A DNA stretch of 64,000 bases. Source: Narcine bancroftii. Lineage: Eukaryota. The notes under the pieces were generated by a model. The model worked only from the letters and a program-made list of their open reading frames with translations. It was not told the DNA's origin and searched no databases. The translations under genes were made by a program, and so were the position numbers. The stretch lies in assembly GCF_036971445.1 (NCBI RefSeq), contig NC_091474.1, positions 193,998,001 through 194,062,000 of the forward strand, in the 5' to 3' direction. Of the stretch, positions 1,633 to 63,970 are shown piece after piece; position 1 is the stretch's first letter; each line of letters starts with the position of its first letter.

Positions 1633-1924
1633 TGTTGCTTTGCAACATACATAACTGCAGCAGCGAAATGGCCCTGATTGTTACGCATGGGCGGCAGGAC
1701 AGCCGCAGCAAAAATGGCGTCATGGGATGATCTCTTCCAGTCCAGACTGGAAGGGTGCATGCATGCTTGTGTCATCATGATACGAGCACCTGTGTGTAAG
1801 GGCCGGAATGGAGTCGTGCTTAAAGGCTGCGTGCAAGATGCAAATTAAATCAGATAGTTGTGATACCTGAGCACATAGCCTGCTGCTTCAGTCTCGGTGC
1901 TGCGCTCAGTCACAACACGCTACA
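1633..1924 (+). mobile_element. 3' LTR of the Gypsy element
   Basis: Begins TGTTG right after the polypurine tract, ends GCTACA, contains ATTAAA near 1844. Confidence 0.75.
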
Positions 1925-2639
1925 ATATAATAATTTTTGTATTCATCGAAAGAAAAATTTAGGTGCTTCAAGATGAATTAATTTAGAAATTAAATCTACC
2001 AAAAAAAATTCTCTTCTTTCGATACTTGGAGCACCGTTACCTTTTCTGGCCTCCAAACTAACTGAAAATTTTGTTGTTAGACCTATGTTGAGAATCTGGT
2101 TTCAATTTAGGAAACATTTTGGGTACCATACATTTTTATTAATTAGTCCTATTTTAGGTAATTCCTTTCTTTTGGTTCAAGATATCAGTTTCCAATATTG
2201 GTCAAATTTAGGTATCCAATCTTTTTTATATATTTTTACTGACCAAAATCTTGTCTCATTTGAACAATTATCCACCAAATTTACAATACCTAGATATAAT
2301 TTTTTTCATTATTTACAAGTTAGGAGCTTTTTGAATTCTTTAATTTTGAAGCTCAGTGAAGACCTGGAACCTCTTAATGAGAATGATTTATCATTTTCAA
2401 CCTAATTATAAAATTATAAAATTCGAGAGATAGTTCCCTAGATAGAATTTTTAAAAATTATGGGAACAAGATTTTCAAGAGCTAATTTCTGAAACTACGT
2501 GGAATTCTATTTTGAAGCGAGCGCATTCAACTTCACTTTGTGCTAGACACTCATTTTGAGTGTTTGAGGTAGTACACCCGGCCCACTATTCCACAGTTCA
2601 ATTGGCTAAATTATATTCTAATCCCTCTTCTAAATGTGA

Positions 2640-3858
<1,219 letters not shown>

Positions 3859-27410: not shown

Positions 27411-28880
27411 GGCACTTTCAGGTGGCCAATTGCCCCGCTTGTAAAGCTGCATATTTTGGCAATATGTGGCTGTTGGGAGGCCACGTGAATGTGCAGGAGG
27501 CACTTGCAAGGTGAACTTTGTAACCCTCCTCCGAGAGCCTCCCCAGCTGTCTGAATGCTGCCACCTAAAAGTGGCTGCATTTGGGATGAGTCAGCTAGCG
27601 AGCACCTGACAGCTCCTCTCCCAGCTGCCCCTTCCCCTGGCGCAGGACATCGGGACAGGAGCAGCTGCCTGGGCTGTCAGCGCGGGAACTGCGGGGCTGG
27701 AGTGGCCGGCGGGGGAGAGCGGGGGCTGGAGCGGCCGGCGGGGGAGAGCGGGGGCTGGAGCGGCCGGCGGGGGAGAGCGGGGGCTGGAGCGAGAGCGGGG
27801 GCTGGAGCGGCCGGCGGGGGAGAGCGGGGGCTGGAGCGGCCGGCGGGGGAGAGCGGGGGCTGGAGCGGCCGGCGGGGGAGAGCGGGGGCTGGAGCGGCCG
27901 GCGGGGGAGAGCGGGGGCTGGAGCGGCCGGCGGGGGAGAGCGGGGGCTGGAGCGGCCGGCGGGGGAGAGCGGGGGCTGGAGCGGCCGGCGGGGGAGAGCG
28001 GGGGCTGGAGCGGCCGGCGGGGGAGAGCGGGGGCTGGAGCGGCCGGCGGGGGAGAGCGGGGGCTGGAGCGGCCGGCGGGGGAGAGCGGGGGCTGGAGCGG
28101 CCGGCGGGGGAGAGCGGGGGCTGGAGCGGCCGGCGGGGGAGAGCGGGGGCTGGAGCGGCCGGCGGGGGAGAGCGGGGGCTGGAGCGGCCGGCGGGGGAGA
28201 GCGGGGGCTGGAGCGGCCGGCGGGGGAGAGCGGGGGCTGGAGCGGCCGGCGGGGGAGAGCGGGGGCTGGAGCGGCCGGCGGGGGAGAGCGGGGGCTGGAG
28301 CGGCCGGCGGGGGAGAACGGGGGCTGGAGCGGCCGGCGGGGGAGAACGGGGGCTGGCCAAAACAATGCCGGTCGGTACCCAACTCAAGCACCATTACTGA
28401 CTTTCCGGCCGCTCCAGCCCCCGTTCTCCCCTGCCAGAGCTCCAGACCCTGCTCTCCCCTGCCGGTGCTCCAGCCTCCTCCCCTGCCAGCCGCTCCAGCC
28501 CCGTGAGTGGGGAGAGAGCGGGACAGCGGTATCATTGTGGGAACGTCCCATGCGGGATGTCCCCATGCTGACAGCCTGTGCCGGCCGCCTGACAGTGTCG
28601 GGACTGAATTTATGAGTGGGGAAAGAGTGGGGCAGTGGGATCAGTGTGGGTGCGCCTGGCGCGGGATGTCCCTGCGCTGATAGCCTGCGCTGGCTGTCCC
28701 AGTTGACAGCCAGCAATCCTGAATTGACACCCCAAGGGACAGGAGCCGGATTGCGCTCAGATGCGCATCACGCCACAGCTGTCCTTTCAGGTGGCCAATG
28801 CTGCCACCTGAACTGCAATTTAAAGGGACGCTTCGGCTTCTTCAGGCGCATTCTTAGCTGAGAATGCACCTGAAAAAGCC
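27411..28880. mobile_element. GC-rich palindromic MITE (PIF/Harbinger-like termini) containing a minisatellite
   Basis: Terminal inverted repeats GGCACTTTCAGGTG ... CACCTGAAAAAGCC in TA-rich flanks; internal inverted subrepeats. Confidence 0.65.
27692..28356 (+). repeat. 29-bp minisatellite (GGGGGAGAGCGGGGGCTGGAGCGGCCGGC), about 23 copies
   Basis: 29-bp period read directly; one truncated unit near 27790; last two units carry an AGAAC variant. Confidence 0.95.
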
Positions 28881-29154: not shown

Positions 29155-32100
29155 AGGGTTGGGAATCTGAATCTTAGTGCTGAGATTAAGGTAGAAAGAA
29201 ATCAAGGTGTAATGGTAGGCAAAGTTAAAATTGGAAATAAGTCCAAATTGATAGGCAGCAAACAAGACAAAAAAAGACAAAGGAAAAGACCAGATAATTT
29301 GGTGAACAATGGAACTACAGAGAAATCAGATACTGGTCGAAGGGTAATTGTGCTTGTATGCAGAGTATTAGGAATAAGGTAGATGACCTAGTTGTGCAGA
29401 TTCAGATGGTAAGGTATGACATTGTGGCCATCACCGAAACATGGCTGAATGAGAAATCTGATTGGGAACTGAATGTACAGGGTTACACCTTGTATAGGAA
29501 AGATAGGCAGGTAGGTAGAGGGGGTGGCCTGGCCTTGATGGTAAACAATGCTATTAAATCACTTGAAAGAAGGGACATGGGGACAGAAATTGTGGAATCT
29601 TTATGGGTTGAAATAAGAAATGGCAAAGGTAAAAAGAATTTACTAGCTGTAATATACAGGCCCACAAACACCAGCCGGGAAGTGGACTGTGAACTGCAGC
29701 TGGAAATAGAAAAAGCATGTCAGAAGGAGAATGTCAAGATAATTATGGGAGATTTTAATATGAAAGGGGATTGGGAATGTCAGGAAAGTACAGGATCTCA
29801 GGATTATAGAATGCCTAAAGGATGGCTTTTTGGAACAGTTAGTCGATCAGCCCACCAGAGGATCACCAGTTTTGGATTGGGTGACGTGTAATGAACCTGA
29901 GGTGATTAGGGATTTAAAGGTTTTGAAGCCCTCAGGAAGTAGTGATCATAACATAATAGAGTTCATCTTCCAATTTGAAAGGGAAAAAATGATATCAGGT
30001 GATCAATTTTTCAATGGATCAAAGGGAATTACAGTGGTATGAGAGGGGATCTGACCCAAGTTGATTGGAAAAAGAAAGCTACATTGTGGGATGGGGGGGA
30101 GGGAATGGCAGATTAGAATTGGTTGATATTTCTACAAGAAAAATAAAGCACAGAATAGGTATATTCCAAGGAAAATTATAAATGGTAAAATAACGCAGAT
30201 GTGGCTAACAAGAGAGGTTAAAGCTAAAACAAAAGCAAAAGGGAGAGCATATAAGGTAGCAAAAATTACTGGAAAAGCAGAGGACTTGGAAAATTTTAAA
30301 AACTTACAGAGACAAAGAAAGTCATCAGGAAAAAAAGATGAATTATGAAAGGAAATTGGCAAATAACATACAAAAGAATACTAAGAGTTACTTCAAATAC
30401 ATAAAAAGTAAAAGAGAGACAAGGGTAGATATAGGGCTGATTGAAAATGAAGCTGCAGAAATTATAATGGGTAACAAAGTGATGGCAGAGGAATTAAATG
30501 GATATTTTGTGCCAGTCTTCACTGTGGAGGACAGTAACAATATACCTGATATTCAAAGGTCTCCAGGAATAGAATTAAATACAGTCAACTTAGGAAGGTG
30601 AATGGTCTAAAATTAGATAAGTCTCCAAGAATGGATGAAGTGCACCCACCCACTCGTTCTGAAGGAGGTGGCCTTGGAGATTGTAGAGGCATTGGAATTG
30701 ATTTTCCAGAAATCAATAGACTCAGGCATGGCTCCCGAGGATTAGAAGGTTGGAAATGTAGTTCTGCTGTTTAAGAAAAAATGAAATTATAGGCCTATTA
30801 GTCTGACTTCTGTAGTTGGAAGATATTGGAATTGATCCTCAAGGAAGAGGTTATAGAATACTTTGAGGTGCATGGCATGATAGGTCCAAGCCAGCTTGGG
30901 TTCAAGATCCTGCCTGATGAATCTAATGCAATTTTTTGAAGAAATCTCAAGTAGGGTGGACAAGAGAGAGGCTGTGAATGTAGTGTATTTAGATTTTTTT
31001 AAAAAGGCCTTCAATAAGATGCTGCATAAGAGGCTGCTTAATAAGATGAGAGCACATAGAATTATAGGAAAGATATTAGACTAGGTAGAGCATAGGCTGA
31101 TAGGCAGGAAGCAAAGGGTGAGAATAAAGGGATCCCATTTTAGTTGGTTGCCTTTTAATACTGGTGTTCCATAAGGGTCAGTGTTGGGGCCACTTCTTTT
31201 CAACAATGTATATTGATGATTTTCATGAAAGAACCCAACAATGAAGACGCTGTTGACATCCGGTACCGCACGGATGGCAGTCTCTTCAATCTGAGGCGCC
31301 TGCAAGCTCACACCAAGACACAAGAGAAACTTGTCCGTGAACTACTCTTTGCAGACGATGCCGCTTTAGTTGCCCATTCAGAGCCAGCTCTTCAGCGCTT
31401 GACGTCCTGCTTTGCGGAAACTGCCAAAATGTTTGGCCTGGAAGTCAGCCTGAAGAAAACTGAGGTCCTCCATCAGCCAGCTCCCCACCATGACTACCAG
31501 CCCCCCCACATCTCCATCGGGCACACAAAACTCAAAACGGTCAACCAGTTTACCTATCTCGGCTGCACCATTTCATCAGATGCAAGGATCGACAATGAGA
31601 TAGACAACAGACTCGCCAAGGCAAATAGCGCCTTTGCAAGACTACACAAAAGAGTCTGGAAAAACAACCAACTGAAAAACCTCACAAAGATTAGCGTATA
31701 CAGAGACATTTTCATACCCACACTCCTGTTCGGCTCCGAATCATGGGTCCTCTACCGGCATCACCTACGGCTCCTAGAACGCTTCCACCAGCGTTGTCTC
31801 CGCTCCATCCTCAACATCCATTGGAGCGCTTTCATCCCTAACGTCGAAGTACTCGAGATGGCAGAGGTCGACAGCATCGAGTCCACGCTGCTGAAGATCC
31901 AGCTGCGCTGGGTGGGTCACGTCTCCAGAATGGAGGACCATCGCCTTCCCAAGATCGTGTTATATGGCGAGCTCTCCACTGGCCACCGTGACAGAGGTGC
32001 ACCAAAGAAAAGGTACAAGGACTGCCTAAAGAAATCTCTTGGTGCCTGCCACATTGACCACCGCCAGTGGGCTGATATCGCCTCAAACCGTGTATCTTGG

Positions 32101-33283
32101 CGCCTCACAGTTTGGCGGGCAGCAACCTCCTTTGAAGAAGACCGCAGAGCCCACCTCACTGACCAAAGGCAAAGGAGGAAAAACCCAACACCCAACCTCA
32201 ACCAACCAATTTTCCCCTGCAACCGCTGCAACCGTGTCTGCCTGTCCCGCATCGGACTTGTCAGCCACAAACGAGCCTGCAGCTGACGTGGACTTTTACC
32301 CCCTCCATAAATCTTCGTCCGCGAAGCCAAGCCAAAGAAAGAAAATTGATGATTTAGATTGTGGATTACAGATGACACCAAGATAGGTGGTAGAGTATGA
32401 AGTGTAGAAGAAATCAAAAGCTTGCAGAGAGACAGACAACTATGGAGAATGGGCGAATGGCAGATGAGAAATAATGTTGAGAAATGCACGGTTGTGCATT
32501 TTGGTAGAGGAAATAAACAGTCCGATTATTATTTGGATGGGGAGAAAATTCATACCTCTGAAGTACAAAGGGACTTGGGGGTCCTCGTGCAGGATAACCT
32601 GAAAGTTGACTGCCAGGTTGGAATGGTGGTAAAGAAGGCAAATGCTATGTTGGCATTCGTTTCAAAGGGGATTGTGTATAAGAATAAAGATGTTGATGAG
32701 ACTCCATGAGGCACTGGTGAAACCTCATTTGGAGTACTGTGTGCAGTTTTGGGCCCCATATCTTAGAAAGAACATAGCAAGGTTGAAGAGGGTACAGAGG
32801 AGGTTTACCAGAATGATTCCAGGAAAGAGAAGGCCAACAAATAAGGAATGCTTAGCGGCTCTTGGACTCTATTCATTAGAATATAGAAGAATGAGAGGGG
32901 ATCTCTGAAATATTTTGAATAATGAATGGATTGTAGATTGGACAGAGTAGATGTAAATAAGATGTTTCCCCTGTTGGGTGAAACCAGGACAAGAGGGCAC
33001 AATCTTAGAATTAAAAAGTACTAATGTATAACAGAAATAAGGAGAAATTTCTTTAGCCAAAGTAGTGGAATTCGTTGCCAGATGCAGCTGTGGAGTCAGG
33101 ATCATTGGGGGAATTTAAAGGGGAAATTGATAGGTATCTAATTAGTCAGGGTATCATGGGATATGGGGACAAAGGCGGAACTTGGAACTAGATGTGAGAA
33201 CAGTTTAGCTCAGGGAGGTTTTACAGAACAGGCTTGATAGGCCAAATGGCCTGCTCCAGTTCCTTTTATTTGTGATCTTGTGG
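29155..33283 (+). mobile_element. CR1 LINE ORF2 relic (APE endonuclease and RT), split by an RTE insertion
   Basis: YDIVAITETWL, IIMGDFN, GSSDHNII, VVYLDF, HLEYCVQFWAPYL motifs with stops and frameshifts. Confidence 0.9.
31223..32344 (+). mobile_element. Young RTE-clade LINE, 5'-truncated, uninterrupted RT C-terminal ORF
   Basis: LLFADD, FTYLGC, LRWVGHVSRM and C-terminal CNRC...H zinc motif; (GAAA)n tail; TSD ATTGATGATTT at 31212-31222 and 32345-32355. Confidence 0.95.
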
Positions 33284-41630: not shown

Positions 41631-41757
41631 CACTCGCGACCTGTTTGACGTCTTGAACGATCATCAAAAAGGTAAAATGATGCTACCTTTGCTAAGTACC
41701 AACTAACCTCTCTCTATAACTGCACTTCTGTACTACATCTAACTTGTCATACTATGT

Positions 41758-43580
41758 CTTCTTTGGCTTGGCTTCGCGGACGAAGATTTATGGAGGGGGT
41801 AAAAAGTCCACGTCAGCTGCAGGCTCGTTTGTGGCTGACAAATCCGATGCGGGACAGGCAGACACAATTGCAGCGGTTGCAGGGGAAAATTGGTTGGTTG
41901 GGGTTGGGTGTTGGGTTTTTCCTCCTTTGCCTTTTGTCAGTGAGGTGGGCTCTGCGGTCTTCTTCAAAGGAGGTTGCTGCCCGCCAAACTGTGAGGCGCC
42001 AAGATGCACGGTTTGAGGCGATATCAGCCCACTGGCGGTGGTCAATGTGGCAGGCACCAAGAGATTTCTTTAGGCAGTCCTTGTACCTTTTCTTTGGTGC
42101 ACCTCTGTCACGGTGGCCAGTGGAGAGCTCGCCATATAACACGATTTTGGGAAGGCGATGGTCCTCCATTCTGGAGACGTGACCCATCCAGCGCAGCTGG
42201 ATCTTCAGCAGCGTGGACTCGATGCTGTCGACCTCTGCCATCTCGAGTACTTCGACGTTAGGGATGTAAGCGCTCCAATGGATGTTGAGGATGGAGCGGA
42301 GACAACGCTGGTGGAAGCGTTCTAGGAGCCGTAGGTGGTGCCGGTAGAGGACCCATGATTCGGAGCCGAACAGGAGTGTGGGTATGACAACGGCTCTGTA
42401 TACGCTTATCTTTGTGAGGTTTTTCAGTTGGTTGTTTTTCCAGACTCTTTTGTGTAGTCTTCCAAAGGCGCTATTTGCCTTGGCGAGTCTGTTGTCTATC
42501 TCATTGTCGATCCTTGCATCTGATGAAATGGTGCAGCCAAGATAGGTAAACTGGTTGACCGTTTTGAGTTTTGTGTGCCCGATGGAGATGTGGGGGGGGC
42601 TGGTAATCATGGTGGGGAGCTGGCTGATGGAGGACCTCAGTTTTCTTCAGGCTGACTTCCAGGCCAAACATTTTGGCAGTTTCCGCAAAGCAGGACGTCA
42701 AGCGCTGAAGAGCTGGCTCTGAACGGGCAACTAAAGCGGCATCGTCTGCAAAGAGTAGTTCACGGACAAGTTTCTCTTGTGTCTTGGTGTGAGCTTGCAG
42801 GCGCCTCAGATTGAAGAGACTGCCAACCGTGCGGTACCGGATGTAAACAGCGTCTTCATTGTTGGGGTCTTTCATGGCTTGGTTCAGCATCATGCTGAAG
42901 AAGATTGAAAAGAGGGTTGGTGCGAGAACACAGCCTTGCTTCACGCCATTGTTAATGGAGAAGGGTTCAGAGAGCTCATTGCTGTATCTGACCCGACCTT
43001 GTTGGTTTTCGTGCAGTTGGATAATCATGTTGAGGAACTTTGGGGGACATCCGATGCGCTCTAGTATTTGCCAAAGCCCTTTCCTGCTCACGGTGTCGAA
43101 GGCTTTGGTGAGGTCAACAAAGGTGATGTAGAGTCCTTTGTTTTGTTCTCTGCACTTTTCTTGGAGCTGTCTGAGGGCAAAGACCATGTCAGTAGTTCCT
43201 CTGTTTGCGCGAAAGCCGCACTGTGATTCTGGGAGAATATTCTCGGCGACACTAGGTATTATTCTATTTAGTAGAATCCTAGCGAAGATTTTGCCTGCAA
43301 TGGAGAGCAACGTGATTCCCCTGTAGTTTGAGCAGTCTGATTTCTCGCCTTTGTTTTTGTACAGGGTGATGATGGTGGCATCACGAAGATCCTGAGGCAG
43401 TTTACCTTGGTCCCAACAAAGCTTGAAAAACTCATGCAGTTTGGCATGCAGAGTTTTGCCGCCAGCCTTCCAGACTTCTGGGGGGATTCCATCCATACCT
43501 GCTGCTTTGCCACTTTTCAGTTGTTCGATTGCCTTATATGTCTCATCCAGGGTGGGAACCTCATCCAGCTCTAGCCTTAG
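41758..43580 (-). mobile_element. Young RTE LINE, 3' half (RT, C-terminus, 3' UTR, GAA tail)
   Basis: KAAGMDGIPPE, SQCGFR, FVDLTKAFDTV, GVKQGCVLAP, LLFADD; one +1 frameshift in a G-run near 42592-42599; nearly identical to the 31223 copy; left TSD TCATACTATGT at 41747-41757. Confidence 0.95.
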
Positions 43581-46500
43581 AGCGCACTGCACTCCACCTA
43601 AAAGCTCCTTTGCGCAGGCCCGAGGACAGGTCCACGTCCTCCCCCTCCACGTCCTCCCCCTCCACGTCCTCCCCCTCCACGTCCTCCCCCTCCACGTCCT
43701 CCCCCTCCACGTCCTCCCCCTCCACGTCCTCCCCCTCCACGTCCTCCCCCTCCACGTCCTCCCCCTCCACGTCCTCCCCCTCCACGTCCTCCCCCTCCAC
43801 GTCCTCCCCCTCCACGTCCTCCCCCTCCACGTCCTCCCCCTCCACGTCCTCCCCCTCCACGTCCTCCCCCTCCACGTCCTCCCCCTCCACGTCCTCCCCC
43901 TCCACGTCCTCCCCCTCCACGTCCTCCCCCTCCACGTCCTCCCCCTCCACGTCCTCCCCCTCCACGTCCTCCCCCTCCACGTCCTCCCCCTCCACGTCCT
44001 CCCCCTCCACGTCCTCCCCCTCCACGTCCTCCCCCTCCACGTCCTCCCCCTCCACGTCCTCCCCCTCCACGTCCTCCCCCTCCACGTCCTCCCCCTCCAC
44101 GTCCTCCCCCTCCACGTCCTCCCCCTCCACGTCCTCCCCCTCCACGTCCTCCCCCTCCACGTCCTCCCCCTCCACGTCCTCCCCCTCCACGTCCTCCCCC
44201 TCCACGTCCTCCCCCTCCACGTCCTCCCCCTCCACGTCCTCCCCCTCCACGTCCTCCCCCTCCACGTCCTCCCCCTCCACGTCCTCCCCCTCCACGTCCT
44301 CCCCCTCCACGTCCTCCCCCTCCACGTCCTCCCCCTCCACGTCCTCCCCCTCCACGTCCTCCCCCTCCACGTCCTCCCCCTCCACGTCCTCCCCCTCCAC
44401 GTCCTCCCCCTCCACGTCCTCCCCCTCCACGTCCTCCCCCTCCACGTCCTCCCCCTCCACGTCCTCCCCCTCCACGTCCTCCCCCTCCACGTCCTCCCCC
44501 TCCACGTCCTCCCCCTCCACGTCCTCCCCCTCCACGTCCTCCCCCTCCACGTCCTCCCCCTCCACGTCCTCCCCCTCCACGTCCTCCCCCTCCACGTCCT
44601 CCCCCTCCACGTCCTCCCCCTCCACGTCCTCCCCCTCCACGTCCTCCCCCTCCACGTCCTCCCCCTCCACGTCCTCCCCCTCCACGTCCTCCCCCTCCAC
44701 GTCCTCCCCCTCCACGTCCTCCCCCTCCACGTCCTCCCCCTCCACGTCCTCCCCCTCCACGTCCTCCCCCTCCACGTCCTCCCCCTCCACGTCCTCCCCC
44801 TCCACGTCCTCCCCCTCCACGTCCTCCCCCTCCACGTCCTCCCCCTCCACGTCCTCCCCCTCCACGTCCTCCCCCTCCACGTCCTCCCCCTCCACGTCCT
44901 CCCCCTCCACGTCCTCCCCCTCCACGTCCTCCCCCTCCACGTCCTCCCCCTCCACGTCCTCCCCCTCCACGTCCTCCCCCTCCACGTCCTCCCCCTCCAC
45001 GTCCTCCCCCTCCACGTCCTCCCCCTCCACGTCCTCCCCCTCCACGTCCTCCCCCTCCACGTCCTCCCCCTCCACGTCCTCCCCCTCCACGTCCTCCCCC
45101 TCCACGTCCTCCCCCTCCACGTCCTCCCCCTCCACGTCCTCCCCCTCCACGTCCTCCCCCTCCACGTCCTCCCCCTCCACGTCCTCCCCCTCCACGTCCT
45201 CCCCCTCCACGTCCTCCCCCTCCACGTCCTCCCCTCCACGTCCTCCCCTCCACGTCCTCCCCCTCCACGTCCTCCCCCTCCACGTCCTCCCCCTCCACGT
45301 CCTCCCCCTCCACGTCCTCCCCCTCCACGTCCTCCCCCTCCACGTCCTCCCCCTCCACGTCCTCCCCCTCCACGTCCTCCCCCTCCACGTCCTCCCCCTC
45401 CACCCCCTCCACCCCCTCCACGTCCTCCACGTCCTCCCCCTCCACGTCCTCCCCCTCCACGTCCTCCCCCTCCACGTCCTCCCCCTCCACGTCCTCCCCC
45501 TCCACGTCCTCCCCCTCCACGTCCTCCCCCTCCACGTCCTCCCCCTCCACGTCCTCCCCCTCCACGTCCTCCCCCTCCACGTCCTCCCCCTCCACGTCCT
45601 CCCCCTCCACGTCCTCCCCCTCCACGTCCTCCCCCTCCACGTCCTCCCCCTCCACGTCCTCCCCCTCCACGTCCTCCCCCTCCACGTCCTCCCCCTCCAC
45701 GTCCTCCCCCTCCACGTCCTCCCCCTCCACGTCCTCCCCCTCCACGTCCTCCCCCTCCACGACCTCCCCCTCCACGTCCTCCCCCTCAAAAGATGTTCAC
45801 AAACTCAAGCTAGCATGCTGGAACATCAGAACCATGCTAGACAAGGCTGAAAGCCACCGACCTGAACGTCGGTCTGCCCTCATTGCACATGAACTCCTCA
45901 GACTTGACATCGACATAGTCGCTCTCAGTGAAGTCCGCCTGGCAGATGTAGTAAGCCTCCAAGAACGCGGTGCGGGATACACACTCTACTGGTCTGGCAA
46001 GCCTTCGGATGAACGACGCCTATCTGGTGTAGGCTTCATGGTCAAGAGCTTCATTGCCTCCAAACTCGAAAACCTTCCGACAGGCCTCTCGGACCGAATC
46101 ATGTCCATGCGACTCCCCCTTCAAAACAAGCGTCACATCACCCTCATCAGTGTCTATGCTCCAACCCTCCAGGCGGAACCAGCAGAAAAGGACAAGTTCT
46201 ACACCGACCTGCGCAACCTCAACCAACGCACCCCTACAGCAGACAAGGTTGTCATCCTGGGCGACTTCAACGCTCGTGTCGGCAAAGACTCAGAAACCTG
46301 GCCAGGAATCCTGGGCAAGCATGGCGTCAGCAAGTGCAACGACAATGGGCGCCTCCTGTTGGAGCTCTGCGCAGAACAGCGGCTTGTCATTACAAACACC
46401 CTTTTTCAGCAGAGGGACAGCCTTAAGACCACCTGGATGCATCCCTGATCCAAACACTGGCACCTCCTGGACTACATCCTGGTGCGAGAAAGTGACAAAC

Positions 46501-47224
46501 GAGATGTGCTCCACACCAGGGTCATGCCTAGCGCGGAATGCCACACTGACCACCGGCTAGTTCACTGCAAGCTCAACCTTCACTTCAAGCCAAAGCCCAG
46601 GAACAATAAAGCCCCCAGAAAGAGGTTCAATGTTGGAAACCTGCAGTCAGAGGAAGCGAGAGGAAACTTCCAGGCAAACCTCAAAGCAAAGCTCGACGAT
46701 GCAACCCGCCTCACGGACCCGTCCCCTGAAACCCTCTGGGATCAGTTGAAGACTACCATACTGCAATCCACTGAAGAGGTACTGGGCTTCTCCTCCAGGA
46801 AAAACAAGGACTGGTTTGACGAAAACAGCCAGGAAATCCAGGAGCTGCTGGCAAAGAAGCGAGCTGCCCACCAGGCTCACCTTACAAAGCCGTCCTGTCC
46901 AGAGAAGAAACAAGCCTTCCGTCGCGCATGCAGCCATCTTCAGCGCAAACTCCAGGAGATCCAAAATGAGTGGTGGACTAGCCTCGCCAAACGAACCCAG
47001 CTCAGCGCGGACATTGGCGACTTCAGGGGTTTCTACGAGGCTCTAAAGGCTGTGTACGGCCCCTCACCCCAAGTCCAAAGCCCGCTACGCAGCTCAGACG
47101 GCAAAGTCCTCCTCAGCGACAAGATCTCCATCCTCAACCGATGGTCAGAACACTTCCAATCTCTTTTCAGTGCCAACCGCTCAGTCCAAGATTCCGCCCT
47201 GCTCCAGCTCCCTCAACAGCCCCT
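43581..47224 (+). mobile_element. Inverted 5' half of the same RTE LINE (N-terminus, APE endonuclease, linker)
   Basis: LACWNIRTM, DIVALSEVR, SVYAPT, ILGDFNARVG, HTDHRLV; TGA at 46446-46448; ends QLPQQP, contiguous with LRLELDE of the minus half; right TSD TCATACTATGT at 47224-47234. Confidence 0.93.
43631..45787 (+). repeat. 15-bp tandem repeat (TCCACGTCCTCCCCC), about 144 copies
   Basis: Read directly; perfect except two 14-bp units at about 45221-45251, short 9-bp units at about 45399-45430 and one T>A at about 45762. Confidence 0.98.
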
Positions 47225-48999
47225 CATACTATGTACGAGATGTCTAACTGGTCTACTTGCAAAATAACCCCGTTGACTGCATCTTGATAGATGTGACAAT
47301 AAACTTGAATGTGAACTTCCTGAGGTTCACACTGTCACAGCCAACTTAAGTTAATTTGATTTCACATTTCAGATGAAAACATATTCCAGATTAAGCTTAA
47401 GTACTGATTAATTTATATGACTCACTGGAAAATTGTCAACTGTCCATTAAAAAAAACAGAACATGTCCAATCCAGCTAATTACTGACAAGTTTACTCTCA
47501 CTTCAACAAAATGATGGTTGATGAATGATTCAACCTTGTACTTATTTCCCTCACCAGTATCTCGTGTTATCTTGGTCTGGATGCACTCCAGTGCAGAGCA
47601 CTTTCTCCTGCTTCTTTGCATCATTCAGATTACTGAATCTGGTGGAGAGAGGGTGGGTGGGAGTGGCTTTAACCCACGAGAGTGGGTTTTGGGGCCTTCC
47701 ACTCACCTAGTTAATTTCACTTTCAGTCAACACAGAGGTGCTCTCAGTTGTGTGGTTCAGCAGATATGGCCCCCAAGTAGATAAGCAAAGAATTCTTTTC
47801 ATCGATCATAACACAGAAAACGCTTGAAACATTCAGCAGGTCAGAGAGCATCTGTGGAAAAAAGAAACTGAGTTAATGTTTAGGGTCTGAGACCCTTCAC
47901 CAGGGAGAAAGGAAGATCTAGAGAAATCCTGCTAATTATTTCCAGCATCTCTATTCATAGAGGCTTGATGTTCAAATGGAAGAGCTTACAGCAAGACAGT
48001 AGCTTGTGTATTAAACATGCAAGTGTACTTCAAAATGTTTCCTTTCTGATCAGAATTTATTCACCTCCTTTCACTGGAACAGTCTTTTCAACCACTAAAT
48101 ATCACATGCAGCATATTACTACTGGCACGCACCAATTATTTGAGAATTCCAGCAAATTAGGAATTTCAAAAATAATTTGCCAAGTAGTCATTAGATAAGC
48201 ATATTATATGGAACCTTTATGTGCAATTTTTAAGTAGTTTGATTTTATCCTGCAGTAGAACAACAACTGAGCACCGAGCTCGACTTTAGAGAGGTACATG
48301 CACTTGCTATTTTGCAAGATCTATAAATGGAAGCTACCAACACATTGTTTATTTTTATGCATTCCTTTTCCTTCATTAAGAAGCCTCACCTCCACTCCAA
48401 ATCTCCTCTCCTCAATGTGGTCACTTTAAACACTCATATGGTAAACTTAGTGCCAAGCAACGATACTGAAGCATCAAGAGCTGGGATGGCAAAGTTTGTG
48501 GCAACAAATATCAGCCACTGAGACAAACAGATTTTGGTTGCATAGTTATAAAGGTACTGAACTAGCAGCTTGAAGTTGAGACCAGTAATTCTGAGGCATG
48601 CAGAGTTTAATATGATAAATTAAATACTATTATCCAGAATTCAAGCAATTAGCAAAAAAATTATAAAGTTGTAATAGATAATAACTGAAAAAAAATTAAA
48701 TGAAAAATTTAAATTTGTTAAAGTAAATGTTCTTTGAAAGATGGCGCTGGACCCCCCCTCCACCTCAGGCACAAAGCCTGCAAACCGAATAACGTGTCCG
48801 GGGTGGGGGGGGGGGGGGGAGGGTGGGGGTGGGTGTCATGACATCACTTCTGGTTTCCAGTCAGCCGGACCAGAAGTGACATAAAAGTTGGCTGGAAAGA
48901 GAATTAAAGATTTTCCTGCTCATCTTAACCTGAGCCAGAGTAGGTGGAACTTTATGAGGAATTGGCTGAAAATTTGAACTTTTTCTTTCTCTTAAAATA

Positions 49000-54391: not shown

Positions 54392-54447
54392 TCTTCTTCT
54401 TTGGCTTGGCTTCGCGGATGAAGATTTATGGAGGGGTATGTCCACGT
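54392..54447 (-). mobile_element. 56-bp RTE insertion consisting only of the 3' UTR and (GAA)n tail
   Basis: Matches the 3' ends at 32287-32340 and 41758-41815; TSD CTGTTTGTTAGT at 54380-54391 and 54448-54459. Confidence 0.9.
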
Positions 54448-60549: not shown

Positions 60550-63500
60550 GAGGTAGGTGTGACCTGTACAAAAAGGACGGGTTGCATTTGAACCCCAGGT
60601 AGTGAGCATGGGGATTCTGGAGAGGACATTTGCTAGGGTTACTCAGGAGACTTTAAACTAGAATGGCTGGGGGGCAGGGAAGCAAATGAAGGAGAAAAGC
60701 AAGGAGAAGGTTAGAGTGCAATCAAAGAAAGCTTGTTGACAGTGCTTGAGGGGGGGAAAGGCAGGTGATAGAAAAGGGGGATGCTTTATACGAAGATGGA
60801 CAGAGGTCAATTGCAAAAGATCAGAAAAGAGGTGTTGGTAAAGATAGGGGCATAAAGGAACTAAAAAGTGGGAAATCTCTAAAATACATATATTTTAATG
60901 CTAGGAGCATTGTAAGGAAGGTGGATGAGCTGAAGGTATGGACTGACACTTGGAAGTATGACGTGGTGGTGATTAGTGAAACATGGTTACAGGAGGGATG
61001 AGGGATGTGACTGGCAGCTAAATATTCCTGGATTTAGATGCTTTAGGTGTGATAGAACCGGAGGGGGGGGGGGGGGGGTGGGGCAAGAGGGGATGGGGTT
61101 GCACTACTTAGAGAAAATATTACAGCAGTGCTTAGGTGCGATAGAATAAAAGACTCGTCCAAGGAGGCTATTTGGGTGGAATTGAGGAATGGGAAAGGGG
61201 AAGTTACCACCGAATGGGGAACGCGAATTAGAGGAACAAATTAGTAGGGAGATAGCAGATATTTGTAATACGCAGAGGGTAGTGAGCATGGGGGTTTTTT
61301 AATTTCCGAATATTGATTGGGAAACCCATTCCGTGAAAGGGCTGGATGGGTTGGAGTTTGTAAAATGTGTGCAGGATAGCTTTTTACATCAATACGTGGA
61401 GGTACCAACTAGAGAGGGAGCTGTGTTGGATTTACTGTTGGGGAATGAGATGGATCAGGTGACAGAGGTATGTGTGGGGGAGCACTTCGGGTCCAGTGAT
61501 CATAGTGCCATTAGCTTCAAGGTAATTATGGAAAAGGATAGGTCTGGGCCCAGAATTGAGGTTTTTGAGTGGGGAAAAGCTAGCTTTGAAGAGATGCGAA
61601 AGGATTTACAAGGGGTGAATTACAAGGGGCGTTTTCTGGGAAGGATGTAATAGAGAAATGGAGGGTCTTTTAAAGGAGAAGTTTTAAGAATACAATATCT
61701 TTATAAACCTGTTAGGTTGAAAGGTCAGGTTAAAGGTTTGAGAGAGCCATGGTTCTCAAGGGATATTGGAAACTTAGTTCGAAAAAAGAGGGAGTTCTAC
61801 AATAAATATAAGAAACAGGGTAAAAAGATGTTTGGGTATTATATTGAATGTAAAAAGAATCTTAAGAAAGAAATTAGAAAAACTAAAAGAAACTATGAGG
61901 TGGCTATAGCAAGCAAGGTGAAAATAAATCGAAATATTTTCTACAAATATGTAAATAGCAAAAGGAAAGTGAGAGATAAAATTGGTCCAATAGAGAATCA
62001 GAAAGGACAAATGTGTGTGGAGCCAAAAGAGATGAGGGAGGTCTTGACCAATTTATTTTCCTCAGTATTTACTGAGGAGAAGGATATTGAATTGTGCAGG
62101 GTAGAGAAAGCAAAAGTGGTATATATGGAGACTATAGCATTTAAGAAAGAGGTAGTACTGGGGGTTTTGAAACATATAAATGTGGATAAATTTCCAGGTC
62201 CTGACAGGATTTTCCCCAGGACCCTGAGAAATTAGTGAGGAAATAGCGGAGGCTCTGGTAGTGATTTTTCAAATGTCATTAGAGGCGCGTATTGTGCTGG
62301 AGCATTGGCGTGTTGCGCATGTGGTTTCTTTGTTTAAAAATGGTTCAAGGAGCAAGCCTAGCAATATCGGCCTGTAAGTTTGACGTCTGTGGAAGGTAAA
62401 TTGATGGAAAGCGTTCTTAGAGATAGTATATACAAGAATATGGAGGGACGGGGTCTGATCAGGGACACTCAACACAGATTTGTGCGTGGAAAGGCGTGTT
62501 TGACCAATCTTGTTGAATTTTTTGAAGATGTGACTAGGAATTTTGATGAGGGTAGAGCAGTGGATGTTGTCTATATGAACTTCAATAAGGCCTTTGATAA
62601 GGTTCCACTTGGGAGATTAGTTAGGAAGGCTAAGTACATGGGTATTAATTTGGAGATAATCAAATGGATTCAACAGTGGCTGGAAGGAAGGTGCCAGAGA
62701 GTAGTAGTAGATAATTGCTTGTCAGGATGGAGGCCGGTGACAAGCAGCATACCTCAGGGTTTGGGATTGGGACCGTTGGTGTTTGTCATATATATTAATG
62801 ATCTGGAGGATGGGGCAGTAAATTGGATTAGTAAATATGCAGATGATACTAAAATAGGGGGAATTGTGGATGATGAAGAGGGTTTTCAAAGATTGCAGAG
62901 GGATTTAAACTGATTAGAGGAGTGGGCAGAAAGATGGCAGATGGAGTTTAATGCTGATAAAGTGTGAGGTGCTTCATTTTGGAAAGAATAATCAAAGCAA
63001 GACATATGTGGTAAATGGGAGGGCATTGAAGAATGCAGTGGAGTAGAAAGATCTAGGAATAACGGTGCATTGTTTCCTGAAGGTAGGAGCGTATGTGGAT
63101 AGGGTGGTGAAGAAGGCCTATATAAATCAGTGCATGGAATATAGGAGTTGGGAAGTAATGATGAAACTGTACAAGGCATTGGTGAGGCCAAATTTGGAGT
63201 ACTGTGTGCAGTTCTGGTCACCGATTTATAGGAAGAATATTAACAAGATAGATAGAGTGCAGAGAAGATTTACGAAAATGTTGCCTGGGTTTCAGCATCT
63301 GGAATACAAGGAAAGATTGAGCAAATTAGGTCTTTATTCCTTGGAACGTAGAAGGCTGAGAGGGGATTTGATAGAGGTACTTAAGATAATGAGAGGGATA
63401 GATAGAGTTGAAGTGGAAAGGCTTTTAGGAAAGATTGAGCAAATTAGGTCTTTATTCCTTGGAACGTAGAAGGCTGAGAGGGGATTTGATAGAGGTGCTT

Positions 63501-63970
63501 AAGATAATGAGAGGGATAGATAGAGTTGATGTGGAAAGGCTTTTAGGAAAGATTGAGCAAATTAGGTCTTTATTCCTTGGAACGTAGAAGGCTGAGAGGG
63601 GATTTGATAGAGGTGCTTAAGATAATGAGAGGGATAGATAGAGTTGATGTGGAAAGGCTTTTCCCATTGAAAGTAGGAGAGATGGATACAAGAGGTCATG
63701 GGTTGAGAGTTGATGGGCAAAGGTTTAAGAGTAACATGAGGGGGAACCACTCTCTGTGGTTACTGTGTGGAATGGGCTTCCAGGAAAGGTGGTGGAGGCA
63801 GGGTCAATTTTGTTATTTAAGAAAGAGTTGGATAAGTATATGGATGGGAGGGGGATGGAGGGATATGGGCAGAGTGCTGGTAAGTGGGATCAAAAGAGGG
63901 TATTTGGATCAGTGCAGACTAGAAGGGCCAAATTGGCCTGTTTCCGTGCTGTAATTGTTATATGGTTATA
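60550..63970 (+). mobile_element. CR1 LINE: end of ORF1 plus degenerate ORF2 (APE and RT) and 3' tail
   Basis: YKKDGLHLN, YFNARSI, ISETWL, FGSSDH, YMNFNKAFDKVP, SKYADDTKIGG, LEYCVQFWSP. Confidence 0.93.
63309..63662 (+). repeat. 118-bp tandem triplication inside the CR1 element
   Basis: AGGAAAGATTGAGC starts at 63309, 63427 and 63545. Confidence 0.92.

Follow-up and report, generated by a model that had tools for sequence, protein, structure and literature searches.

The insertion at positions 41747-47234 of the window, which is the 64,000-nt stretch of Narcine bancroftii contig NC_091474.1 analysed here (193,998,001-194,062,000, forward strand), is very probably a young RTE-type LINE with a single ORF, now dead, in which the front part was inverted within one TSD. 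Twin priming is the likely cause, and about 11% of the sampled sister copies are built alike. The window copy is unremarkable on its own, and the interest lies in the behaviour of its family. The geometry and the TSD were observed directly, as were the family rate of inversion, an excess of microhomology at the site of second priming, a coupling of inversion to TSDs and a floor in the length of the sense arm.

The two halves of the element lie on opposite strands (Table 1). The tail-primed arm contains the linker, RT, C-terminal region, a short 3′ UTR and a short GAA-type tail. On a family consensus of 3,682 nt, taken as the majority of seven uninverted copies, the plus arm ends at 1863 and the minus arm starts at 1862, so that the arms overlap by 2 nt and nothing is lost at the inner breakpoint. 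The anchor across this point is contained in 18 of 19 sister loci, as CAACAGCCCCTAAGGCTAGAG in 17 and with a one-base difference in one; because uninverted sisters run through CAACAGCCCCTAAGGCTAGAG, QQP adjoins LRLE in the family. The first-pass annotation had placed two opposite-strand halves inside one 11-bp TSD and had QQP and LRLE rejoin in one frame with a 2-nt overlap. The first statement is confirmed by the 11-mer and by the alignment of both arms to the consensus, and the second by 17 of the 19 sister loci together with the seven-copy consensus. Its claim that there had been no loss stands at the inner breakpoint only; elsewhere, the window copy lacks consensus 1-345, a stretch that includes the 5′ UTR and the ATG at 317. 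The T at 47224 is common to the inverted arm and the TSD, which gives the priming site 1 nt of microhomology; the inner junction has none and carries one extra base, and both values are within chance for one copy.

Table 1. Features of the inverted insertion and its flanks (window coordinates)
Feature	Position	Strand	Details
TSD copy at element 3′ end, 11 bp	41747-41757	+	Exact match to other TSD copy
Non-inverted (tail-primed) arm	41758-43580	-	Consensus 1862-3682, 99.3% to consensus
1-nt deletion in G run, near 42600	42593-42600	-	Frame shifted after RT core; sole indel in minus arm
RT domain, PF00078 RVT_1	42636-43343	-	E 8.5e-34; residues 80-315 of 42633-43580 minus-strand ORF
Inversion junction base	43581		Single base fitting neither arm
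Inverted (internally primed) arm	43582-47224	+	Consensus 346-1863, 98.5-100%
15-bp minisatellite	43631-45787	+	144 copies, 99% matches, 2,157 bp, ORF N-terminus
AP-type endonuclease domain, PF03372	45819-46301	+	E 1.8e-11
Premature stop codon	46446-46448	+	Arg at same place in intact sisters
TSD copy at element 5′ end	47224-47234	+	Base 47224 also in inverted arm
Older host repeat, interrupted by insertion	47235-47320	+	~80% to relatives; other part ~41650-41746

The 11-mer TCATACTATGT is present exactly twice within the 64-kb window, at the two TSD positions of Table 1. The flanks belong to one host repeat, for which 40 scored matches at ~80% identity were found among 278 candidates. Left flank, a single 11-mer and right flank form a gap-free collinear alignment at the site with nine uninterrupted repeat copies. 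Because these empty-site copies carry the 11-mer once, it is a true TSD, and the objection that the 11-mer might already have been doubled at the empty site falls away; the nine copies are paralogues of the host repeat rather than an orthologous empty allele. In three sequencing runs, possibly of the source sample itself, the right junction lies in one 1,623-nt Logan contig per run. The match is free of differences but reaches just 28 letters into the element, below the 31 letters required for support. In a run of a second organism, coverage was confined to scattered pieces of the flanks and stopped short of the site. The inner junction is unbridged among the contigs listed; since such contigs omit links of low depth that join very deep repeats, this is uninformative either way.

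The LINE family is young. An exact 33-mer of the 3′ end has 68,058 occurrences in the 3.33-Gb genome, and the end of the plus half is matched at 99-100% by 39 other copies. Two copies (L035 and L039) retain an intact ORF of 1,103 aa with AP endonuclease and RT. In the family, the ORF is followed by a short 3′ UTR of 57 nt and tails of GAA/AAG type. Upstream of the main ORF, no ATG-initiated ORF longer than 51 aa was present in seven long copies, none of them proven full length. The 5′ region consists of ~145 unique nt and a variable number of 169-bp monomers, with up to 919 nt seen and the true 5′ end undefined. Across the RT region, close relatives in sea urchin, amphioxus, shrimp and fish share 75-85% identity (420-656 bits), and no protein named RTE is found among the 120 homologues listed. 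L1 ORF2p and R2 are only distantly similar, the former at ~71 bits over the whole ORF. Membership in the L1 clade was considered and rejected on the basis of the single ORF, the failure to find an ORF1, the lack of a poly(A) tail and this weak similarity to L1 ORF2p.

The RTE clade (RTE-1, BovB) is reportedly that of Malik and Eickbush in 1998. The present family resembles it in having one ORF with AP endonuclease and RT, a short 3′ UTR and a microsatellite tail, and its TSDs resemble those of the clade, which peak at 10-12 bp according to the passages on TSD length in PMC4245944 and PMC6007223; it appears to differ in its 5′ region, which contains tandem 169-bp monomers and reaches at least 919 nt, where a ‘short 5′ UTR’ is usual. 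The element is thus best fitted as a putative single-ORF RTE-type LINE, and the RTE label given in the first-pass annotation is borne out by architecture, tail and TSD length rather than by a tree with named references.

The same annotation had regarded the 3.6-kb inverted arm as unusually long, a view that does not hold. The arm spans 3,643 bp, of which 1,518 nt represent element on the consensus and 2,157 bp are an expanded minisatellite, and three sisters have inverted arms that exceed this element length (1,725, 1,958 and 2,599 nt). The minisatellite has two units in the consensus and 1-47 units, usually 2-4, in the 17 sister arrays measured, with at most four in 9 of the 17; since sister arrays differ so widely in size, growth of the array likely came after insertion. 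The window copy is dead and has no function, having lost its start codon and acquired a premature stop and a frameshift.

Three samples of sister copies were used to determine how common inversion is. Sample A comprised the 39 closest long copies, 37 of which were classed (L030 and L049 have no 3′ end in the locus); 12 of the 37 are inverted, 11 of the 12 with a TSD, and as the sample is enriched for long copies it gives no rate. The long copy L040, which has no TSD, contains an internal inversion ending short of the element end. Sample B comprised the first 100 of the 68,058 3′ ends (C1, 1.8-5.9 Mb), with 10 inverted copies, one of them complex (L129). Sample C comprised the first 100 of 524 3′ ends chosen by three arbitrary flank letters across C1 and C5; an antisense piece was present in 14, two of which are nested insertions and 12 inversions. 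Three loci first taken as inverted (L027, L255, L261) were rejected because each proved to be nested in an older copy on the opposite strand, and were counted as plain, and L111, plain according to L281, was excluded from the TSD counts. Samples B and C together contain 22 5′ inversions in 200 copies, or 11% (95% CI 7-16%), which by extrapolation from these two chromosomes would amount to ~7,500 inversions genome-wide. All breakpoints and TSDs differ, so the inversions are separate events, and the twin-priming geometry recognised in the first-pass annotation is a property of the family and not a one-off.

Inverted copies are set apart by their TSDs. In samples B and C, TSDs flank 21 of the 22 inverted copies, which supplies the count that had been proposed as a check, and 64 of 177 plain copies (P 5e-8), against a false TSD rate of 15 in 800 mismatched flank pairs. 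The inverted share of TSD-bearing copies is 21/85 (25%), and the TSDs of inverted copies measure 9-14 bp with a mode of 12. Of the 34 inverted sisters, 27 were scored for microhomology between the TSD end and the antisense RNA, two without a TSD and five that are complex or lie in tandem-repeat zones being excluded. Microhomology reaches at least 1 nt in 18 of the 27 (6.5 expected) and at least 2 nt in 14 (1.6 expected), and neither count was matched in any of 20,000 simulations; most sisters have 1-5 nt at the second-priming site, and its absence from nine of the 27 counts against twin priming. The ends of the two arms are at most 20 nt apart on the RNA in 15 of the 27 and at most 50 nt apart in 21, and the arms overlap in 14; ends more than 100 nt apart, in six, also count against twin priming. 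At the inner junction, microhomology of at least 1 nt is seen, as a raw count, in 10 of the 17 copies listed, and extra or templated bases in five of the 17, the window copy included. The lengths of the two arms are uncorrelated (rho 0.05, n=22).

Inversion also depends on the length of the sense arm. In the pooled samples B and C, inversions of at least 18 nt are found in 0 of 98 short copies (sense arm below ~620 nt) and 22 of 102 long ones (P 1.5e-7), and the shortest sense arm with such an inversion is 622 nt. This floor was first seen in sample B, was replicated in sample C (0/52 vs 12/48, P 7e-5) and persists in copies with 97% or more identity to the consensus (0/58 vs 16/71). Among 25 plain-looking copies that have extra bases, 10 contain nearby antisense inserts of 6-16 nt (P <=0.05 each, ~1 expected); five of these 10 have a sense arm below 600 nt, which counts against a strict floor. 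Second priming may begin in short copies and then abort, or the short antisense inserts may be products of host repair. For inverted L1, Kojima and Okada reportedly described a floor near 590 nt in 2009.

Under the twin-priming model (Ostertag and Kazazian 2001), as described in the relevant sections of PMC2912911, PMC12016303 and bioRxiv 10.1101/2024.08.27.596794, the endonuclease would nick both strands ~11 nt apart, and the first 3′ end would prime at the GAA tail and copy consensus 3682 to 1862. Before completion of this first arm, the second 3′ end would pair with the same RNA at ~1863, through 1 nt of microhomology, and would copy toward the RNA 5′ end, stopping at 346. The two cDNA ends would then be joined, with one extra base in the window copy, and filling of the gaps would produce the 11-bp TSD. 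The order of these events, the use of one RNA as template and the action of the element’s own RT as the second polymerase are what we infer. The coupling to TSDs fits an RT that has to take the second 3′ overhang before it is trimmed by the host, a requirement taken from the part of PMC4245944 that deals with such trimming.

The best-surviving alternative, although an unlikely one, is that host repair joined a free piece of cDNA, or the cDNA of a broken RNA, in reverse by end joining and without internal priming by the target end. Such repair would suit the extra or templated bases at five of the 17 inner junctions, the window copy among them, the nine of 27 sisters without TSD microhomology, and the short antisense inserts at 10 of 25 plain-looking junctions, which resemble templated insertions. 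It sits badly with the near-perfect coupling of inversion to clean 9-14 bp TSDs (21/22) and with an inverted piece that is always the upstream part, always inverted and abutting the TSD, and the overlaps in 14 of 27 imply that the same stretch of RNA was copied twice.

Priming of two RNAs or RNPs from both target ends, with the products joined head to head, has already been proposed for L1 (in the section of PMC2837659 on this point), and the gaps of 466-2,327 nt in three of the 27 sisters would fit two templates or a template jump. We regard it as highly improbable here, given arms that meet within 2 nt on a 3.7-kb RNA in the window copy, an inverted arm without a 3′ tail, and arm ends that lie within 50 nt in 21 of 27 sisters, where independent ends would do so in ~3% by our own estimate (100/3682). 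Slighter still is the chance that an ordinary 5′-truncated copy was inverted later through double-strand-break repair. That later or complex inversions exist is clear from L040, but such an event requires one break exactly at the TSD edge, whereas the TSD is intact at, or within ~16 nt of, the mapped arm end in 32 of the 34 inverted sisters, no inversion among the 34 runs into flanking DNA, and the copies are young (median ~98% identity to the consensus). Least probable of all is a misassembly that bridged the 2-kb minisatellite by joining two different copies of a repeat with 68,000 members. The very high copy number and the unbridged inner junction among the contigs listed could be cited for it, but against it stand the same 11-mer on both flanks, the continuation of one host repeat through these flanks, an inner junction 49 bp outside the minisatellite, and the same architecture with different breakpoints at 34 other loci.

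Twin priming, the preferred reading, also places these copies beside the 5′-inverted L1 elements of mammals, which share the order TSD, inverted upstream arm, junction, sense 3′ arm, tail and TSD, as well as microhomology where the second end primes and arms that overlap slightly or leave a small gap. The rate is L1-like: the 25% of TSD-bearing copies in the present family compares with the 30.9% of TSD-flanked human and chimpanzee L1 in Table 2 of PMC2912911 and with the L1 inversion rate of 18-22% in Table 1 of PMC12016303. The arm ends of human L1 lie within 20 bp in 46% of cases, as stated in the portion of PMC12016303 on arm ends, and internal duplications, that is, overlaps of the arms, are described for L1 in the corresponding portion of bioRxiv 10.1101/2024.08.27.596794. 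Unlike L1, the RTE-type element has one ORF, a GAA-type rather than a poly(A) tail and TSDs of 9-14 bp rather than ~15. The sense arms of inverted L1 have medians of 253 bp (somatic) and 571 bp (germline) in the length data of PMC12016303, whereas none below 622 nt is found here, and the correlation of arm lengths given for tumour L1 (R 0.76) in the arm-length section of bioRxiv 10.1101/2024.08.27.596794 contrasts with rho 0.05 in the RTE-type family.

A literature search by title and abstract start found no report of 5′ inversions in RTE elements, and the word ‘inversion’ is not used in the main text of two papers on RTE insertion signatures (PMC6007223, PMC13295347). In the cell assays covered in part of PMC4245944, 5′ inversions arose almost only with human L1 in human cells, which counts against twin priming here; the exception in the same account is one 5′-inverted insert of zebrafish Nimb-2_DR in chicken DT40 cells. 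Nimb-2_DR is likewise a non-L1 LINE with a TSD of ~12 bp that is able to give a 5′ inversion, but it belongs to another clade and is represented by a single cell-assay insert, as compared with tens of germline copies and a rate in the present family. Provisionally, twin priming is a known mechanism for which the clade is new, and which is now quantified in this clade with respect to rate, TSD coupling and length floor.

In LINE integration, the manner and timing of the second-strand cut are still open. We tentatively suggest, with somewhat less than even confidence, that twin priming is built into the AP-endonuclease LINE machinery wherever the staggered cuts are at least 10 bp apart, with no need of ORF1p, a poly(A) tail or a mammalian host, that one RTE family made thousands of such copies (~7,500 by extrapolation), and that the ~600-nt floor would reflect a fixed delay, or an RNP footprint, that separates the first priming event from the freeing of the second target end. 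Inversion at an L1-like rate by an ORF1-less, non-L1 element shifts the cause to the shared EN-RT chemistry. With a single protein, at least 68,000 young copies and intact ORFs side by side in one genome, the family lends itself to the timing of second-strand nicking, both as a system and as a large set of natural data.

The 5′ region of this RTE-type LINE family is built of tandem GC-rich 169-bp monomers, of which up to four were seen, in a region reaching 919 nt, in long copies of the L017 type at sister loci (L043, L053, L056). These monomers resemble the monomer promoters of mouse L1 and are an unusual feature among RTE-type elements; in L033 and L041 the inversion lies within them. Downstream, a 15-bp unit at the N-terminus of the ORF constitutes a minisatellite seed that is carried by the family, with 144 units at 43631-45787 in the window copy versus 1-47 across 17 sisters.

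Additional repeats in the window and a minisatellite shared with sister loci.
Feature	Location	Strand
Family copy, plain 5′ truncation	window 31224-32339	+
Family copy, plain 5′ truncation	window 54397-54436	-
GC-rich minisatellite, 29-bp unit, ~20 copies	window 27693-28356	
Three 118-bp units in tandem	window 63309-63662	
15-bp minisatellite	L026, L040, L044	

The 118-bp tandem units have the appearance of a CR1-type fragment.

Additional T runs of 3 and ~13 nt separate the TSD from the inverted piece in L034 and L086, respectively, at positions where the RNA carries an A run, and are attributed to slippage during second-site priming. L022, L081, L121, L137 and L239 carry same-strand internal deletions, 130-3,000 nt long and in some cases with short matches at the joints, which may represent template jumps on the RNA. 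At L040 (2193-6671), sense monomers are followed by an inverted middle (consensus 1204-64) and then by the sense arm, an internal inversion that differs from simple twin priming; no TSD was found at this locus.

L027 and L255 (element 3′ ends) are two independent insertions that share one landing site, consensus 3638-3640, near the 3′ terminus of an older family copy on the opposite strand, and their 11-bp TSDs are almost identical, making this position a possible self-targeting hotspot for the family. L129, with three copies of its TSD and an antisense 3′ piece of 44 nt whose end coincides with this landing site, is possibly a further case.

Among the listed homologues (P0001-P0020), the RT region shares 85% identity with a sea urchin protein and 76-81% with proteins of amphioxus, shrimp and fish, a similarity that suggests possible horizontal transfer.
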